This document shows, in pieces, positions 5,744-48,419 of a stretch of 64,000 nt of DNA. This DNA comes from a phage. Below the pieces are notes generated by a model that was not told the origin of the DNA, searched no databases, and worked only from the letters and a program-made list of their open reading frames with translations. Every line of letters starts with the position of its first letter. Position 1 is the first letter of the stretch. A program made the position numbers and the translations under genes. The stretch is taken from the NCBI GenBank assembly GCA_012178725.1, contig GCA_012178725.1_3030.1; one strand, 5' to 3'.

Positions 5744-8700
5744 ATGGCTACTTTAAAACAAATACAATTTAAAAGAAGCAAAACTGCAGGAGCACGTCCT
5801 GCCGCTTCAGTATTAGCCGAAGGTGAATTGGCTATAAACTTAAAAGACCGTGTACTTTTTACTAAAGATGACCAAGGAAATATTATTGATCTGGGTTTTG
5901 CTAAAGGCGGTAGTATTGACGGGAATGTTATTCATACAGGCAATTATAACCAAACTGGCGATTATACTTTAAATGGCGTCTTCACTCAGACTGGTAATTT
6001 TAATTTAACTGGTATTGCTCGAGTAACTCGCGATATTATTGCCGCTGGGCAGATTATGACTGAAGGCGGAGAACTTATTACAAAAAGTTCAGGTACAGCG
6101 CATGTTCGTTTTTTCGATGGCAATAGTCGCGAACGTGGAATCATTTATGCCCCGGCTAATGACGGTTTAACTACACAAGTACTTAATATCAGGGTTCAAG
6201 ACTATGCCGCTGGCAGCGAAAGCACTTATGCATTTTCAGGCAGTGGCCTATTTACTTCACCTGAAGTATCAGCATGGAAATCTATTTCGTCTCCACAAAT
6301 TCTGACCAACAAAGTCATTACTAATAATAAATCTACGGGTGATTATGACATCTATTCGATGGCAGACAATGTTCCATTGTCTGAAAGCACTACTGCTATT
6401 AATCATCTTCGTGTCATGCGTAATGCCGTTGGTTCTGGTATTTTCCATGAAGTTAAAGATAATGATGGAATAACTTGGTATGCAGGTGATGGACTTGACA
6501 CCTATCTTTGGTCATTTACTTGGAGCGGCGGAATTAAATCAAGTCACTCAATTTCTATTGGTTTAACATCTGGTAGTAAAGATTATTCAATATTAGGACC
6601 ATCTAGTATTGCTTTAGGAGATAATGATACTGGATTTAAATGGCATCAAGATGGATATTATTTTAGCGTTAATAATGGAACAAAAACGTTTTTATTTAGT
6701 CCTAGCGAAACAACTAGCCTAAGAAAATTTGTAGCTGGATATTCTACTAACGGAACCGATTTAACTACTCCTCCAACTGAAAATTATGCTCTTGCTACTG
6801 TCGTGACATATCACGATAATAACGCGTTTGGAGATGGTCAGACTCTTTTAGGATATTATCAAGGCGGTAACTATCATCACTATTTCCGCGGCAAGGGTAC
6901 TACAAACATTAATACTCACGGCGGTTTGTTAGTTACTCCTGGTAATATTGACGTTATTGGTGGTTCTGTTAATATTGATGGTAGAAATAATGCTTCTACA
7001 CTGTTGTTTAGAGGTAACACAACTGGTAGTAGTTCAGTTGATAATATGACAATTTCCGTTTGGGGCAATACGTTTACTAATCCTAGTGAAGGCACCCGTA
7101 AAAATGTCATGGAAATTTCTGACGCAACTAGCTGGATGAGTTATATTCAAAGACTTACTACTGGTGAAGTAGAAATGAACGTTAACGGTTCATTTGAATC
7201 ATCCGGTGTTACTGCTGGAAATAGAGGAGTTCACACAACAGGCGAAATTTCATCTGGAGCAGTGAATGCTCTTCGCATTTGGAATGCAGATTATGGAGCT
7301 ATTTTTAGACGTTCAGAAGGTAGTCTTCATATTATTCCAACTGCTTATGGTGAAGGCAAAAATGGTGATATCGGTCCACTTCGTCCATTTAGTATTGCTT
7401 TGGATACTGGTAAGGTTGTTATTCCAGATTTAGAATCAAGTTATAACACGTTTGCTGCAAATGGCTACATTAAATTTGCTGGTCATGGCGCTGGCGCTGG
7501 TGGTTATGATATTCAGTATTCACAAGCTGCTCCTATTTTCCAAGAAATTGATGACGACGCTGTAAGCAAATATTATCCTATTGTTAAACAGAAGTTTCTA
7601 AACGGTAAATCCGTTTGGTCTTTAGGTACTGAAATTAATTCGGGTACATTCGTTATTCATCATCTGAAAGAAGATGGATCGCAGGGCCATACATCTCGTT
7701 TTAATCAAGACGGTACTGTTAACTTCCCGGATAACGTTCAGGTCGGCGGCGGTGAAGCTACTATTGCTCGTAATGGTAACATCTGGTCTGATATCTGGAA
7801 AACGTTTACTTCAGCAGGCGACGTAACTAATATTCGCGATGCTATTGCTACTCGCGTTGCCAAAGAAGGCGACACGATGACCGGCACTCTTTGGATTAAT
7901 AAAGATGCCGCTGGAATAGTTCTTAATCCTCCTTTGACCAGTGATTCATCATTTATTCGTTCTGATACGGCCGGGGCCAATAATTGGTATATTGGTAAAG
8001 GCGGTGCCGACAATGGTCTAGGTTTTTACAGTTACATTACACAAGGCGGTGTATACATAACAAATACCGGTGAAATATCGCTTTCTCCTCAAGGACAAGG
8101 AACATTTAATTTTAATAGAGACCGCCTTTATATAAATGCTAGTCAATGGGTTGCACATAAATCTGGCGCTTGGGGCGACCAATGGGGCTTAGAAGCTCCT
8201 GTATTTGTGGATTTTGGTAGTGTCAGTAATGACTGCTATTATCCTATTATTAAAGGAAAATCTGGTATTACTAACGAAGGATATTTTTCCGGCGTAGATT
8301 TTGGTATGCGACGCATTACTAATACATGGGCACAAGGTATTATTCGTGTAGGTAATCAGGAAAACGGTTCAGACCCACAAGCCATCTATGAATTCCACAG
8401 TAACGGTACTTTTTATGCCCCTAGCCTACTTAAGAGCAACAGAGTATCAGCAGGTGGCGGTGACCCTGTATGGGCCGGGCCATGTATTGTTCTTGGCGAT
8501 AATGACACAGGTCTAGTTTGGGAAGCAGATGGTATTTTCAACGCATATGCAAACGGCCAAGGTGTATTCAGTTTTAGAGCTGGTCTCGCACAAACATTCG
8601 GTAACGTAGCGTTAAACGTTAACGCAGGTATGTATGTTCGTGATAACATTGATGTTAACGACGTTTATATCCGTTCTGATATTCGTTGTAAGTCAGAAAT

Positions 8701-13276: not shown

Positions 13277-13306
13277 ATAGTACCACAGTATGCTTTGGTT
13301 GTAAAC
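13277..13306 (-). promoter_or_regulatory. Early promoter (GTTTAC-N18-TACTAT) upstream of motA
   Basis: Reverse strand reads GTTTACaaccaaagcatactgtggTACTAT with an A/T-rich upstream tract. Confidence 0.6.
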
Positions 13307-16389: not shown

Positions 16390-16417
16390 TTTGTGTTCCT
16401 CCGTGGTTGATAGGGTA

Positions 16418-16447
16418 ATAATACCACAGAGGAACAGTCTTGTAAAC
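16418..16447 (-). promoter_or_regulatory. Early promoter (GTTTAC-N18-TATTAT)
   Basis: Canonical T4 early promoter architecture directly upstream of the 37-aa ORF. Confidence 0.6.
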
Positions 16448-23153: not shown

Positions 23154-23517
23154 ATTTAATGGCTTGAAGAAGACTAATAATTCTCAAGCGACTTCTTTCA
23201 TCTTTAACTGTAAAAGAAAGAGGGTCACCAGATTTCATAGTGATGGTGCATCCAAAATCAAAATCTTCTGTAACTTCTTCGAAGAAGTCAAATTCTTCAT
23301 CATAAATTAGAACATTACTCTGAAAGCTGTGAAGAATTTTTCCATCATTTCCAGATGCTGTACTAATCATTGTAACATTATGACCTTTCATATCTTCAAC
23401 GATAAATTCGCTTGTAGATATTACTGCATTAATAGAACCGTTCCTATGAATAGCAGAAAATAGATATTTCTTTTCTTCACCTTCGCGAACACGATATTTC
23501 TTACCGATTTTAAACAT
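23146..23517 (-). CDS. Hypothetical protein (123 aa)
   Basis: ORF in operon orientation. Confidence 0.55.
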   Translation of the reverse strand: MFKIGKKYRVREGEEKKYLFSAIHRNGSINAVISTSEFIVEDMKGHNVTMISTASGNDGKILHSFQSNVLIYDEEFDFFEEVTEDFDFGCTITMKSGDPLSFTVKDERSRLRIISLLQAIKFE

Positions 23518-23519
23518 AA

Positions 23520-23696
23520 TTACCCTTTAAGTAAGTCGTAAAATCCACCATTCACATGCTTAGGAGCAGAAGGCCGACGAGTAGACAAACGATGACATTT
23601 AGGGCAAACATCATTTTCTCGTTCAGAAATCTTTTTAATTTTTTCATATTCATGCCCGCAATCTTCGGATTGGCATTTATAATCATACATTGGCAT
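23520..23696 (-). CDS. Zinc-ribbon protein (58 aa)
   Basis: Hand-called MPMYDYKCQSEDCGHEYEKIKKISERENDVCPKCHRL...; two CxxC pairs; below ORF-track cutoff. Confidence 0.4.
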   Translation of the reverse strand: MPMYDYKCQSEDCGHEYEKIKKISERENDVCPKCHRLSTRRPSAPKHVNGGFYDLLKG

Positions 23697-23698
23697 AA

Positions 23699-24124
23699 TT
23701 ATTCCTTAAAGTGTGCTTTCAACATCTGATACAAGGACCATGCCTGTTCATTATTTTCAATAGTAACTTTCATGACCGGGAATTCTGTGAAATCTTCTAT
23801 TTGTTCTTGCTCTTTCTCTTCCTGCTCTTGCTCTTCAGCTGCCTGGTATGGATTTTCAACTTCATCAAAGAACCCAGCTTCGCTAGTAGAAAGCCAGATA
23901 AAGTTTTCGTCAAGGATATCACCATGTGTTGCATATCCAACTGTGCCAGTAGATGTCACAATTTTAGTAGGACGACCAAGATGGTCAACATCTAAAATTT
24001 TAAAAGGATGCATACCTAAACGGCGCGCATAGATTCCGTTATCAGTATGATCTTTAATAAAATTTTCTTGAGCTTGTTTATTTTTAAATTGATACCATTT
24101 ATTAACTTCAAATTTAATAGCCAT
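23699..24124 (-). CDS. Hypothetical acidic protein (141 aa), goF position
   Basis: Size and position as T4 goF; sequence identity not verified. Confidence 0.55.
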
Positions 24125-24339
24125 TAATAAGTTTCCTTCCAGTAAGTTGTGCCATCTTCAGTAATTTCACGAAATACACCGTAAATTGGTTGTTTATCAC
24201 CAACCTTTTCATACACATAAACCGAAGTCAAGTGAGTAAACTTAACGGTATGTTCTTTTTGAACTACTACCAAATCTGGATCGAATAGTACATCTTCAAA
24301 TTCGTCATTAGTGCAATTCTGAACAATTTTACGTTTCAT
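24124..24339 (-). CDS. Hypothetical protein (71 aa), cef position
   Basis: Size and position as T4 cef; not verified. Confidence 0.5.
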
Positions 24340-24352
24340 TACAATTTCCTCA

Positions 24353-24634
24353 TTAATTGAACAGTGGAGCGATGCGTTTCAGAAGAGTAGCAGCACCTTT
24401 AGCGAATTTTACATCATGAAAAACAGTTTCTTCTTCCGTTACAACACGAGCTTTAATGTTTTCACAATCCCAATTTTTGCGAACAATCTTCAAAAGCTGC
24501 AGTAAATCTTTACATTCAGCAATATCGATAACACATCCACGAGAATCTTCCATTATCGCACGATAACCGTAAGCCATACCATAATCATTGAAAGATTGCT
24601 CGATGATAATTAAATTTTCCATTTTATTCTCCAA
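24353..24634 (-). CDS. Hypothetical protein (93 aa)
   Basis: ORF downstream of a promoter-like element. Confidence 0.55.
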   Translation of the reverse strand: MENKMENLIIIEQSFNDYGMAYGYRAIMEDSRGCVIDIAECKDLLQLLKIVRKNWDCENIKARVVTEEETVFHDVKFAKGAATLLKRIAPLFN

Positions 24635-24719
24635 GTTGTTTTCTGTATCAGTAGTTGATATTGATATAGTACCATAATCAACTACTGATGTATATAGTTT
24701 TATGAAAAAATTTTAAACT

Positions 24720-25211
24720 TTATGCATAGCGAGCTTTGCTATAGTGTTTAATCCAACTTTCAGGAATGACTTTGTATGTTCCTAAAAATACCGCGTTGTA
24801 TAACTTAACGCCATCTTCTACCCATTGATCAGTAATGTATGCACACATAGCGCGAGTACGGTTAACAACACCTTCCTCACCTTCAGTAAATTCAAACTCA
24901 TAAGGAGCAACGAACTTAATAGCCTGACCGAGTTTCCACTTAAAGTCTACACCTACATGCGAAGTATCAATCGTTTCAATTCCTTTAGCGGGAACAGCTT
25001 TCAAAAACGCAGGCTCAAGAAATTTCCATCGAACATAACCAAACTGAGGTTTAGACATTCCATCTTTAGGAATGATACGCACTTTTACTTCAGAATCTTC
25101 ATCTTTAACACCATGTTTAAGCTGAATGCTTACGACTTCAACCAATTTTCCTGCTGCTTTAGAACGGGATTTATCAGATACACGAGCAATTTCACCGATA
25201 TTAATATTCAT
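24720..25211 (-). CDS. motB: MotB-like DNA-binding protein
   Basis: 163-aa ORF in the motB position upstream of dexA. Confidence 0.75.
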   Translation of the reverse strand: MNINIGEIARVSDKSRSKAAGKLVEVVSIQLKHGVKDEDSEVKVRIIPKDGMSKPQFGYVRWKFLEPAFLKAVPAKGIETIDTSHVGVDFKWKLGQAIKFVAPYEFEFTEGEEGVVNRTRAMCAYITDQWVEDGVKLYNAVFLGTYKVIPESWIKHYSKARYA

Positions 25212-25255
25212 AATTATCTCTCACTTGTTAAAAAGATTTTATACTCCGCAGGACC

Positions 25256-25285
25256 ATTATACTCTGGTCCCAAGAGTTTGTAAAC
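25256..25285 (-). promoter_or_regulatory. Early promoter (GTTTAC-N18-TATAAT) upstream of motB
   Basis: Reverse strand reads GTTTACaaactcttgggaccagagTATAAT. Confidence 0.6.
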
Positions 25286-25785
25286 TAGCTTACACGAACA
25301 TTAATCACTGCGCTGCGAGGAACTACAGAGTACTCTCCAGCATGAACTACGTTCAGAAGTTCAACACCATCTTCAATCCACTGATCAGTTACCCAACCGC
25401 CAATCGGATTCGCGAATGGACGACGAATATAAACTGCCTTACACAACAAATCAGTCGGGTCTTCAATTTTTTCAACTGGTGTTACATACATAGAAACTAA
25501 ATCCATATCAATATGGGATTTTTCTTGTTCTTCTTTTTCAATTTCTGTCAATAAATTGAAATCTTCTTCATAGATGATGAATGATGATACCCTTCCATAA
25601 TAGTTTCTAATTTCCATGTACACTGTACCAATGAGAATTCCGCTATTAACACTAATAACAGTAAAAGGATATCCGCCAGTTGTACCAAGAAGTTCCCAAA
25701 ACTTGCTATCAGTCGTATTCGACATTGTCTGGAAATCAATTTCAGATGGTTTTTTCATTTGATACGTAGTATTAATTTTAATCAT
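25285..25785 (-). CDS. MotB paralog (166 aa)
   Basis: C-terminus GGWVTDQWIEDGVELLNVVHAGEYSVVPRS aligns with the MotB C-terminus YITDQWVEDGVKLYNAVFLGTYKVIPES. Confidence 0.6.
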   Translation of the reverse strand: MIKINTTYQMKKPSEIDFQTMSNTTDSKFWELLGTTGGYPFTVISVNSGILIGTVYMEIRNYYGRVSSFIIYEEDFNLLTEIEKEEQEKSHIDMDLVSMYVTPVEKIEDPTDLLCKAVYIRRPFANPIGGWVTDQWIEDGVELLNVVHAGEYSVVPRSAVINVRVS

Positions 25786-25794
25786 AATTTTCCT

Positions 25795-26307
25795 TTAATC
25801 TAAGGTAATAAAGCCTTTTAATTCGGCATGCGATTTGCGAAACATTACTTGATGCCCACCAATGATAACTTGATCATCTGGCACTTCATAAATCGCAATG
25901 TACATTCCACGATCTTTTAAGTCTTCACGCTCTTCTCGAGTAAACCATCTCATTATATCATATTCACTAGCGAAAGCAAAATGATATAATGCAATAAACC
26001 ACAATGGAATATAATTTTCAATTCGTGAATAATCTTTATTCCATTTAGTTTTAATAGCATCATTAGCATTTTCAACTAATAACTTATCATCGTGCGGAAT
26101 AGGAATACTTTCATGACTTTCATAATTATCGCTATGATGATGAAATGACGATGAATTAATACCGCAAAATTTTAGCCAAGTTCGAGTTTTCATAGAATCA
26201 AATCCACGATAAGGAGTTGATTGAACACATAACTCTTGCCTAATTTTCATTATACCACTATCATCATTTAATGCGCTAAACGATGATTCAACACGATAAA
26301 TTTTCAT
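25795..26307 (-). CDS. Hypothetical protein (170 aa)
   Basis: ORF-track frame trimmed to MKIYRVESSF, which has a GAGGA ribosome-binding site; the longer start lies upstream of the promoter. Confidence 0.55.
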   Translation of the reverse strand: MKIYRVESSFSALNDDSGIMKIRQELCVQSTPYRGFDSMKTRTWLKFCGINSSSFHHHSDNYESHESIPIPHDDKLLVENANDAIKTKWNKDYSRIENYIPLWFIALYHFAFASEYDIMRWFTREEREDLKDRGMYIAIYEVPDDQVIIGGHQVMFRKSHAELKGFITLD

Positions 26308-26334
26308 TTTATTATCCTCAGTAGCTATGGTGTT

Positions 26335-26364
26335 ATAATACCACAACTGACCGAGGAAGTAAAC
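26335..26364 (-). promoter_or_regulatory. Early promoter (GTTTAC-N18-TATTAT) downstream of dexA
   Basis: Reverse strand reads GTTTACttcctcggtcagttgtggTATTAT. Confidence 0.6.
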
Positions 26365-26370
26365 AACTTT

Positions 26371-27054
26371 TTATCGTTTAGTTGGAAGAGATAGAGGATC
26401 GCATTCTTCCTCTGATGGAGCGTCTTCTAGACCCATAGCGTATCGCAAAGCATACTTCATCATCAGGATGTCTTTCGCACAGTCATGAATAGAATCATGT
26501 GCAACGAATCCATCTAAAGTTCCCTTTGGAAGAGGACATGTGGTCATATCACGAACAAGCAGAAGTGCTTCAATTCTGGTACGAATATCACGCTGATTCC
26601 AGAATTTACACGGTTCTAACTTAAATGTGTCAAGCTCATTCTCAGAAACACCATTAAGACGTTGAATATCACGAATGAGATCGACTAAAATTGGAAAATC
26701 AAACGACATTCCACGGCACCAGCCTTGAGATTTCCAAGGATCGATATTATGCGCATTGATGTAATCATTAAATTTTGCAATACCATCGATAGTGCTTACA
26801 TCTTCATCTGATGGTGCAATATTTTTTCTAGCTTCAGGTGATTGATTTTTCCACCATTCGATAGTGCTTTTAGTAAAAAGACGATGTCCTTTTTGGCTTT
26901 TTAAATCAAATTTGATTTTAATGCCGCGTGAAACTAATTCATCAAATGTTTCAACAACTTCCGGGTTAGGGTCAAAAGCAATTACAGCCAAATCAATAAC
27001 AGCTGCTTTTTCACCACTTCCCATCGTTTCAAAATCTATAATAAAATCAAACAT
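26371..27054 (-). CDS. dexA: Exonuclease A DexA
   Basis: 227-aa ORF with DEDD-type exonuclease N-terminus; length as T4 DexA. Confidence 0.9.
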   Translation of the reverse strand: MFDFIIDFETMGSGEKAAVIDLAVIAFDPNPEVVETFDELVSRGIKIKFDLKSQKGHRLFTKSTIEWWKNQSPEARKNIAPSDEDVSTIDGIAKFNDYINAHNIDPWKSQGWCRGMSFDFPILVDLIRDIQRLNGVSENELDTFKLEPCKFWNQRDIRTRIEALLLVRDMTTCPLPKGTLDGFVAHDSIHDCAKDILMMKYALRYAMGLEDAPSEEECDPLSLPTKR

Positions 27055-37796: not shown

Positions 37797-37825
37797 AACA
37801 ATCTCCTCATTTAACCAACAAGACT

Positions 37826-37855
37826 ACTATACCATAGTCTCGTCAGCTTGTAAAC
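37826..37855 (-). promoter_or_regulatory. Early promoter (GTTTAC-N18-TATAGT) upstream of dmd
   Basis: Reverse strand reads GTTTACaagctgacgagactatggTATAGT; the -35 overlaps the gene 41 stop. Confidence 0.55.
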
Positions 37856-43524: not shown

Positions 43525-43582
43525 TTTGTGTTCCTCCGTAGTTGATAGTTGTATAGTACCACAGAGGAACGGTCTTGTAAAC
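43524..43582 (-). repeat. Promoter-leader cassette copy 2
   Basis: About 55 bp nearly identical to 16389-16447, including -35, -10, ribosome-binding site and ATG. Confidence 0.75.
43552..43581 (-). promoter_or_regulatory. Early promoter (GTTTAC-N18-TACTAT)
   Basis: Reverse strand reads GTTTACaagaccgttcctctgtggTACTAT. Confidence 0.6.
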
Positions 43583-48369: not shown

Positions 48370-48401
48370 AATTTCCTCATTCAAGTTTTAGTGTAAATTA
48401 T

Positions 48402-48419
48402 AAAGGGCCGAAGCCCTTT
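48402..48419 (-). promoter_or_regulatory. Intercistronic CUUCGG hairpin between genes 45 and 44
   Basis: taaagggccgaagcccttta; identical 20-mer also at 53981-54000. Confidence 0.45.

Follow-up and report, generated by a model that had tools for sequence, protein, structure and literature searches.

A perfect 13-bp inverted repeat downstream of the gene motB is probably the stem of a promoter-embedded stem-loop of the promoter-early stem-loop (PeSL) type, which would act as an RNA hairpin on read-through transcripts. The repeat lies at 24647-24689, minus strand, in a phage DNA of 64,000 nucleotides (contig GCA_012178725.1_3030.1 of assembly GCA_012178725.1), the whole of which is referred to here as the window; it is a segment of a Tequatrovirus genome, with 98% identity to phage AR1. 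The element lies where 97 nt separate the stop codon of motB (24722-24720) from the ATG (24622) of a small open reading frame (ORF) that precedes cef, and we refer to it as the motB-cef element. Its arms enclose the -10 of a putative early promoter, the orthologous promoters of other genera keep a hairpin made of different arms, and similar hairpins are enriched at the early promoters of the window; we infer that the hairpin acts at the RNA level.

Anatomy of the promoter and the inverted repeat

The initial annotation, made from the sequence of the window, had described an 11-bp inverted repeat starting at 24648, with an 18-nt loop. The repeat is real: its 11-nt arms are found at 24649-24659 and 24677-24687, one position away from the start given and with 17 nt between them, and they extend to perfect 13-bp arms at 24647-24659 and 24677-24689. 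Inside these arms, a 2x2 internal loop is followed by five pairs closing a 3-nt loop, and the whole structure amounts to 18 pairs in a 43-nt near-palindrome; a repeat search gave 20-nt arms with 85% complementarity and 3 nt between them, and the folds agree. Fold prediction of both strands, the check that had been proposed, returned a stable hairpin as RNA and as DNA. The RNA of the coding (minus) strand folds at -20.2 kcal/mol, as compared with a mean of -7.3 for its shuffles (z -5.9; none of 200 equalled it), and the two DNA strands at -11.5 and -10.9 kcal/mol (z about -5.5). This is the sole perfect inverted repeat of at least 13 bp with a loop of 3-40 nt in the 64-kb window, where about 0.11 such k-mer hits are expected by chance per dinucleotide shuffle; by itself, this frequency is suggestive of more than chance, but not overwhelmingly. 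The parts of the element and of the promoter, all on the minus strand, are the following:

24695-24719, minus strand: A+T-rich stretch AGTTTAAAATTTTTTCATAAAACTA between the motB stop and the -35, with 3 G/C in 25; UP-element-like and conserved in the promoter family
24689-24694, minus strand: -35 hexamer TATACA, 17 nt upstream of TACTAT
24677-24689, minus strand: 5' arm ATCAGTAGTTGAT, taking 12 of the 17 spacer positions and the last base of the -35; unique to the motB-cef promoter
24666-24674, minus strand: extended -10, with TGG at 24674-24672 and TACTAT at 24671-24666; the spacer to the -35 is 17 nt
24662-24674, minus strand: inner imperfect stem and 3-nt loop, UGGUA-CUA-UAUCA, containing the extended -10 according to the folds and the family alignment
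24647-24659, minus strand: 3' arm ATCAACTACTGAT, predicted +1 to +13; initial transcribed leader common to the early-promoter family
24620-24632, minus strand: translation initiation region outside the hairpin, with GGAG at 24632-24629 and ATG at 24622-24620

On the coding strand, the upstream half reads TAA (the motB stop), AGTTTAAAATTTTTTCATAAAAC, TATACA, tcagtagttgattaTGG, TACTAT and atcaat, and the downstream half continues from atcaat through ATCAACTACTGAT and acagaaaacaactt to GGAG, aataaa and ATG. The repeat thus encloses a promoter -10, as had been claimed, with TGG-TACTAT (24674-24666, minus strand) placed in the loop and inner stem. We regard the site as a putative T4-type early promoter because of its TGn motif, its agreement with the T4/PST consensus TTTACW-N17-TAYWAT (PMC4122927) and its homology to the T4 early-promoter family, on which its presumed activity and start depend. 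TATACA matches TTTACW at five of six positions and is the -35 of the Dhakavirus orthologues as well. Transcription is predicted to start at the A at 24659, 7 nt past the -10 and the first base of the 3' arm. Promoter features are absent from the GenBank record of T4.

The segment 24613-24717 resembles three other sites of the window (first bases of the -10 at 13282, 16702 and 43558; 76-80% identity over 59-77 nt), each of them followed by a Shine-Dalgarno (SD) sequence and an ATG, and it has 81-86% identity to the e.8 promoter of T2L and RB69 (loci L057 and L058). In the family alignments, the 3' arm is the common leader (ATCAACTACTGATACAGA...), and the 5' arm belongs to the spacer, a part that otherwise varies among members. 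The sisters at 13282 and 16702 and the e.8 promoters of T2L and RB69 share the leader without a complementary spacer. The statement that the other family members lack the second arm therefore applies to these promoters but not to those at 43558 and 16423, where a spacer arm pairs downstream across the SD. When compared with the e.8 paralogue, the motB-cef promoter has changed both in the spacer and in the -6 to -1 segment, in each case in ways that create pairing. One arm is then the leader and the other its promoter-specific complement, which is more than the shared promoter leader that the initial annotation had named as grounds for giving up its claim. As a separate observation, the motB-cef and e.8 promoters have their entire A+T-rich region in common, together with the leader, SD and initial codons (ATGGAAAAT / ATGGATAAT), and differ only in the spacer and the -6 to -1 segment, which suggests that cassettes of promoter, leader and start codon may move or be homogenised between loci.

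Conservation and covariation across genera

We gathered motB-cef intergenic regions from other genera via Cef homologues, covering Dhakavirus (QL01), Mosigvirus (HX01), Kanagawavirus (Kosakonia phage 305), Winklervirus (CHI14), Gelderlandvirus (STP4-a) and Klebsiella phages. The orthologous promoter has the form GTTTAC or TATACA, 17 nt, TGaTACTAT, and then ...ATCAAC...GAGG, and nearly every example is enclosed by a hairpin, with arms that vary by genus. The arm pairs found are GGTAGGGTAGTG / TATTACCCTATC, GGTCTATG / TATAGACC, GGTGTAGG / CCTACACC, TTGGTGTAGGAG / CTCCTACACCAA, AGGGCTAT / ATAGCCCT against AGGGTTAT / ATAACCCT, and GGTAGGAGCATG / TATGTTCCTACC.

Covariation was assessed on 16 distinct sequences in a gap-free alignment anchored at the -10. 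The dyad falls between -12 and -11 in 16/16 of them. Cells forming a standard pair make up 79.3%, versus 36-49% in registers slid by 1-3 columns and a mean of 69.0% in shuffles; changes on both sides were seen in seven of 13 pairs (29 cells), and no shuffle out of 500 reached the covariation score. When sense and antisense are compared, the outer pairs of the cross-genus alignment hold 6 G.U versus 10 A.C cells, mostly at helix ends, which gives no guidance on the strand. The conservation of a hairpin in distant genera is the strongest evidence in the case, and as a comparison of sequences we take it as decisive. The proposal that the hairpin is the relevant feature here is upheld by these orthologues, which retain it around the -10 although their arms differ, with compensatory changes.

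The Tequatrovirus version has other arms and a dyad centred at -9, and Tequatrovirus is the one genus in which an extra ORF, with a family-type leader, lies between the promoter and cef. This pattern fits a history in which an old 3' arm was lost and pairing was re-created, as we would infer from the sequences. Within the genus, the T4 comparison that had been recommended shows the same 43 nt at 6582-6624 of T4 (AF158101), between motB and cef, and they are also present in T2. The 49-nt element is identical in 475 of the 498 Tequatrovirus records with a full-length match; of the two variants inspected, HY01 has an internal-loop base changed from A to G at -16, and in ZCEC14 an inner G-C pair becomes G.U. 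A retrieval from IMG/VR and metagenomes that left both arms free yielded 14 contigs in which none of the 26 arm positions varies, whereas polymorphisms occur in the 17 nt that follow the stem and in the A/T run ahead of the -35; with identical arms in 14/14 retrieved Tequatrovirus copies, no within-genus covariation was observable among them.

Other arrangements were seen at the same locus. In a distant relative (L044), a canonical terminator overlaps the -35. Three IMG/VR contigs (L045-L047, 640-700) have a promoter before cef in which a MotA-box-like TTGCTT replaces the -35, and a hairpin CTGTATTA...TAATACAG around the -10 adjoins the SD, in resemblance to the published PmSL variant. Three further IMG/VR contigs (L041-L043, about 640-670) have a hairpin, GATAGGGTAATTTTGCCCTATC, directly before the cef SD with no recognisable -35 or -10, which may be a stem-loop that has outlived its promoter.

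Hairpins at other early promoters of the window

We scanned the window for strong T4-type early promoters and obtained 19 candidates on the minus strand, the motB-cef element being included despite its score of 10.5. At six of the 19, the -10 is enclosed by a hairpin that has 10 or more pairs and reaches -16 kcal/mol or better, as compared with 1.1% of 3000 random 58-nt windows (binomial tail 5e-8), an enrichment of about 30-fold. The six are listed with the energies of the sense strand and of its complement:

24647-24689, minus strand: motB-cef hairpin, -20.2 and -18.0 kcal/mol
25243-25284, minus strand: motB promoter TTTACA-17-TATAAT (25284-25256), a source of read-through, with a hairpin around the -10 at 25277-25243, -16.8 and -13.0 kcal/mol
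26315-26357, minus strand: hairpin around the -10 of the motB.2 promoter, -23.7 and -15.8 kcal/mol; SD in the 3' arm
43530-43570, minus strand: sister of the same family, its spacer arm pairing with +8 to +20 including the SD GGAGG, -19.4 and -12.4 kcal/mol
16394-16436, minus strand: sister hairpin around the -10, -22.5 and -19.0 kcal/mol; SD in the 3' arm
37813-37848, minus strand: sister hairpin around the -10, -18.6 and -5.9 kcal/mol; five G.U pairs

The arms of the six hairpins are mutually unrelated. All six fold better as the mRNA strand than as its complement, and G.U pairs are present. No U tract follows any of them (0-4 U in tails of 7-10 nt, and 0 at the motB-cef element). The SD lies within the 3' arm in three of the six (26315-26357, 43530-43570 and 16394-16436; -19 to -24 kcal/mol), and by the predicted folds the ribosome-binding site (RBS) of these three should be hidden in read-through RNA and exposed in promoter-proximal RNA. 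The three are an early-promoter counterpart of the late-promoter hairpins of genes e, soc, 49 and I-TevI.

Two other sites of the window were also noted. At about 48380-48410 (minus strand; first base of the -10 at 48402), the T tract of a canonical G+C-rich terminator hairpin, AAAGGGCTTCGGCCCTTT, runs into a TATAAT -10, and there terminator and promoter overlap in another register. At 25951-25991, within the motB.2 coding region, a perfect 11-bp inverted repeat (loop of 19 nt) surrounds the promoter-like TTTGCT-17-TGATATAAT of the minus strand.

Transcripts that carry the hairpin and a possible function

An RNA begun at the motB-cef promoter carries the 3' arm only, and its leader is predicted to be unstructured (-3.9 kcal/mol, z +0.6). 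The promoter's own RNA would lack the hairpin because the predicted +1 is the first base of the 3' arm. A read-through RNA from motB carries both arms, and in it the hairpin is the centroid structure. Promoters able to produce such RNA lie upstream on the same strand, one before motB (TTTACA-17-TATAAT, 25284-25256) and another before motB.2, and the terminator scan of the window placed no terminator-like site between them and the element. The idea that the hairpin regulates the promoter in which it lies is therefore probably aimed at the wrong target, since the RNA of that promoter is without the 5' arm and only motB read-through folds.

The mechanism that we favour would work as follows. The fixed promoter bases, TGn and the -10, are placed in the loop and the imperfect inner stem, and the arms use the variable positions, namely the 17-bp spacer and +1 to +13, which would be an economical design for a 97-nt gap. 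Initiation at the first base of the 3' arm would give the promoter's own mRNA an open, hairpin-free leader, and polymerases coming from the motB, motB.1 and motB.2 promoters would copy both arms and produce the 18-pair hairpin of -20 kcal/mol. On read-through RNA, the hairpin, which lies 30 nt after the motB stop codon, would be the 3' boundary of the motB transcription unit. Candidate activities for such a boundary are pausing or attenuation, endonucleolytic processing, and a block to 3' exonucleases that would protect the upstream mRNA; a helix of 13 + 5 bp with an internal loop has a size that RNase III could use. The downstream cistrons (the 89-aa ORF, cef and goF) would then rely mainly on their own promoter for expression.

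Several points weigh against this proposal. The hairpin is followed by 0 U in 10 nt and only 5/18 of its pairs are G-C, so that E. coli RNA polymerase would not be expected to terminate there efficiently by the intrinsic route. The promoter is omitted by a simple sigma-70 scan, with matches at eight of the 12 hexamer positions. The structure scored for covariation was read from the same sequences on which it was tested, and the near-invariance in Tequatrovirus is a weak sign of constraint, the genomes being 95-99% identical in this region anyway. Since the arms are perfect Watson-Crick and the strand preference is small (-20.2 versus -18.0 kcal/mol), the motB-cef element by itself cannot separate action as RNA from action as DNA. 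Lastly, our literature searches found neither a T4 map of 5' or 3' ends at the locus nor a mention of the motB-cef hairpin.

A side observation concerns the SD. Here (24629-24632) and at the sister promoters it is GGAG, the motif of the T4 endoribonuclease RegB, which cleaves GGAG in many early mRNAs (PMC3014915). A RegB cut at this site would end the upstream RNA 14 nt after the hairpin, and the hairpin could then be a protective cap at the 3' end.

Comparison with known systems

The closest published counterpart is the PeSL class (Arbiol et al., 2010, PMC2839356; Comeau et al., 2014, PMC4122927). The PeSLs of RB49 and phi1 have the stem-loop mostly between the promoter boxes or overlapping the -10, and the role proposed for them is to terminate or attenuate upstream transcription; one of the RB49/phi1 stem-loops cut downstream lacZ expression about as much as rrnB T1 did (PMC2839356). 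Repeated PeSL cassettes were proposed as mediators of gene shuffling in the same work, in which a mini-circle crossover was mapped inside a stem-loop and a stem-loop-DNA-binding protein was speculated upon (Arbiol et al., PMC2839356). A later study added the T4/PST pair to the class, with the consensus given above (PMC4122927).

A PeSL is an intergenic composite of an A+T-rich stretch, a sigma-70-like early promoter, a stable stem-loop, and an SD with its ATG. The motB-cef element contains all of these: an A+T-rich stretch at 24695-24719, boxes about 17 bp apart (TATACA-17-TGG-TACTAT), a stem-loop enclosing the -10, and an intergenic position from stop codon to SD and ATG; moreover, its promoter and leader form a cassette repeated at several loci. 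It differs in other respects. The PST/T4 legend puts the stem-loops just upstream of the promoter, with stems AGNA...TCNT, whereas here the stem is around the -10, with arms ATCAGTAGTTGAT / ATCAACTACTGAT. The motB-cef stem has no U tract, and the lacZ test concerned another stem-loop, one of RB49/phi1. As for the association of PeSLs with indels and gene swaps, the 89-aa ORF is variable (present in AR1 and T2, truncated in T4, absent in other genera), but the T4 deletion, the local indel, ends inside the ORF and not at the motB-cef element. The texts of PMC2839356 and PMC4122927 do not name the motB-cef element.

In T4, the genes e, soc, 49 and I-TevI have a late promoter inside a hairpin that hides the RBS (PMC3014915). 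The likeness lies in the promoter being placed in the 5' half of the hairpin, such that long transcripts fold and proximal ones do not; the difference is that theirs are late promoters whose hairpins pair the SD or the AUG, whereas the motB-cef promoter is early and its SD is outside the helix, and for this reason no translational effect is predicted for the motB-cef element. Sequestration of the SD was accordingly rejected for this element; it applies to the three sister elements.

With Rho-independent terminators the element shares a stable hairpin soon after a stop codon, and it bears that automated label in the GenBank record ASO78A (MZ726795.1 5873-5923; L054 405-455), where WebGeSTer called it a "rho-independent terminator". 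Its tail, ACAGAAAACA, with 0 U of 10, its A+U-rich stem and its overlap with an active-looking promoter set it apart, and we rejected a canonical intrinsic terminator because no U tract follows, 5/18 of the pairs are G-C and the terminator scan omits the site. A known RNA family was likewise rejected, with no match to Rfam covariance models at E <= 1 in 24300-25300 on either strand. The origin oriA of T4 was rejected on map position, the element being at 6.6 kb of T4 between motB and cef and oriA being located near soc in a review.

The promoters of the N4 virion RNA polymerase have a short inverted repeat centred about 12 bp upstream of the start, and a DNA hairpin is used in their recognition. 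N4 does so with its own single-subunit polymerase and the single-stranded DNA-binding protein (SSB) of E. coli, on a template-strand hairpin; T4 early promoters are read by the host sigma-70 holoenzyme on duplex DNA. Between the N4 hairpin promoters and the motB-cef element there is a resemblance only.

As a feature of T4-like phages, the motB-cef element is sound though rather ordinary, and it is a well-supported case, in T4 itself, of a design that has been published but little tested, that of an early promoter within a hairpin formed only on read-through. Beyond the PeSL papers, it adds a cross-genus hairpin at the motB-cef promoter, with compensatory changes and a fixed dyad. "Terminator" is an inadequate description of hairpins without U tracts, and about a third of the strong early promoters in the window bear a hairpin, some of them hiding an SD and some not. 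The cross-genus covariation, the fixed position of the dyad and the lack of terminator tails may be new. T4 6582-6624 offers a concrete, mutable model site for the insulation of tightly packed early cistrons in T-even phages, and also for asking if the element is connected with the shut-off of early promoters, itself unexplained.

Alternative explanations

We consider it unlikely that the hairpin is a functionless by-product, the spacer having gained an inverted copy of the leader through an accident of replication or recombination (for example, template switching between early-promoter copies) that was then kept by close kinship. Such an origin would agree with one arm being simply the family leader, with Tequatrovirus copies so nearly identical across the region that invariance weighs little, and with a 13-bp inverted repeat in 64 kb not being astronomically rare. 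However, at least six other genera have their own hairpin around the -10 of the orthologous promoter, with compensatory changes, and the enrichment of hairpins at the early promoters of the window also speaks against an accident, as do the differences from the e.8 paralogue, which create pairing, and the invariance of the 26 arm positions next to a flanking leader that varies.

There is a small chance that the repeat works as DNA, by extrusion of a cruciform or hairpin under negative supercoiling or in single-stranded phases, with an effect on the promoter or on recombination; the -10, in a single-stranded loop, could tune open-complex formation or shut-off, or the site could be a hotspot for recombination or endonuclease VII, as for PeSL shuffling. 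Both strands carry perfect arms and fold as DNA, and a PeSL crossover has been placed within the stem-loop, with a protein binding stem-loop DNA being speculated (PMC2839356). The mechanism of early-promoter shut-off is unexplained, which leaves room for such an effect and equally for an operator. In the other genera, the dyad falls exactly between -12 and -11. The base beside it is the one that sigma-70 flips out to nucleate melting. The fixed dyad is, however, equally explained by economy, because TGnTAnnnT (-15 to -7) is centred at -11. The sense-strand fold is the stabler for all six window hairpins, with a margin of 2 to 13 kcal/mol, their G.U pairs being A.C mismatches on the other strand, and the only indel at the locus, the 208-bp T4 deletion, ends inside the ORF and not at the hairpin. 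The narrower version, in which a DNA hairpin or cruciform shows the non-template bases of the -10 to sigma-70 or is bound by a structure-specific phage protein, has a slighter chance still; it could account for a dyad that is fixed between -12 and -11 in six genera and centred on the -10 here. If action as DNA were true, the element would contribute to the extraordinary strength of T-even early promoters or to their shut-off minutes after infection, and a hairpin presenting the -10 to sigma-70 would be the sigma-70 counterpart of the N4 hairpin promoters.

The initial annotation had also offered a protein-binding operator, that is, a dimeric phage or host protein that represses or activates from two 13-bp half-sites spaced 30 bp centre to centre. 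The half-sites have perfect symmetry and overlap with the core promoter, and the neighbouring motB, motB.1 and motB.2 are annotated as transcription modifiers. We nonetheless find this proposal very improbable and would drop it. No shared half-site exists: the arms are unrelated among the six hairpin promoters of the window, and across genera their sequences change while the pairing stays, which is the signature of a structure and not of a recognition sequence. The pair of half-sites has no second copy in the window, where the arm recurs only as a promoter leader. A spacing of 30 bp with 17 unrelated bp between half-sites is also atypical for helix-turn-helix operators.

A translational gate of the e, soc, 49 and I-TevI kind, in which the read-through fold hides the downstream RBS, is hardly credible here: the architecture is the same (a promoter within the 5' half of the hairpin and an own transcript without the 5' arm) and the three window sisters do put the SD in the 3' arm, but the motB-cef SD (24632-24629) is 14 nt past the stem and the predicted fold of the initiation region is identical with or without the hairpin.

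Gene order and the 89-aa ORF

Over positions 23500-26500, the window has 98.2% identity to phage Maryam, 97.9% to AR1 and 97.7% to RB18. The genes around the element are all on the minus strand:

26371-27054, minus strand: dexA
25795-26346, minus strand: motB.2, as listed by the ORF finder
25285-25785, minus strand: motB.1
24720-25211, minus strand: motB, the gene upstream of the element, with its stop codon at 24722-24720
24353-24622, minus strand: 89-aa ORF (AR1_010 / T2_9; phrog_3720), the first gene behind the promoter
24124-24339, minus strand: cef, next after the 89-aa ORF
23699-24124, minus strand: goF

The repeat had been placed upstream of a 93-aa ORF. The position is right and the ORF is real, but translation probably begins at the ATG at 24622, preceded by the GGAG at 24632-24629, which gives 89 aa and matches the annotation of AR1 and T2; the 93-aa form begins at an upstream TTG. 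In the other Tevenvirinae genera there is no ORF between the orthologous promoter and cef. The 89-aa ORF is intact in the window, AR1 and T2, and in T4 an 11-codon remnant is left (T4 locus L002, 601-770). The 208-bp deletion of T4 lies between AAAATT microhomologies, with both endpoints within the ORF, and the frame is also shifted.

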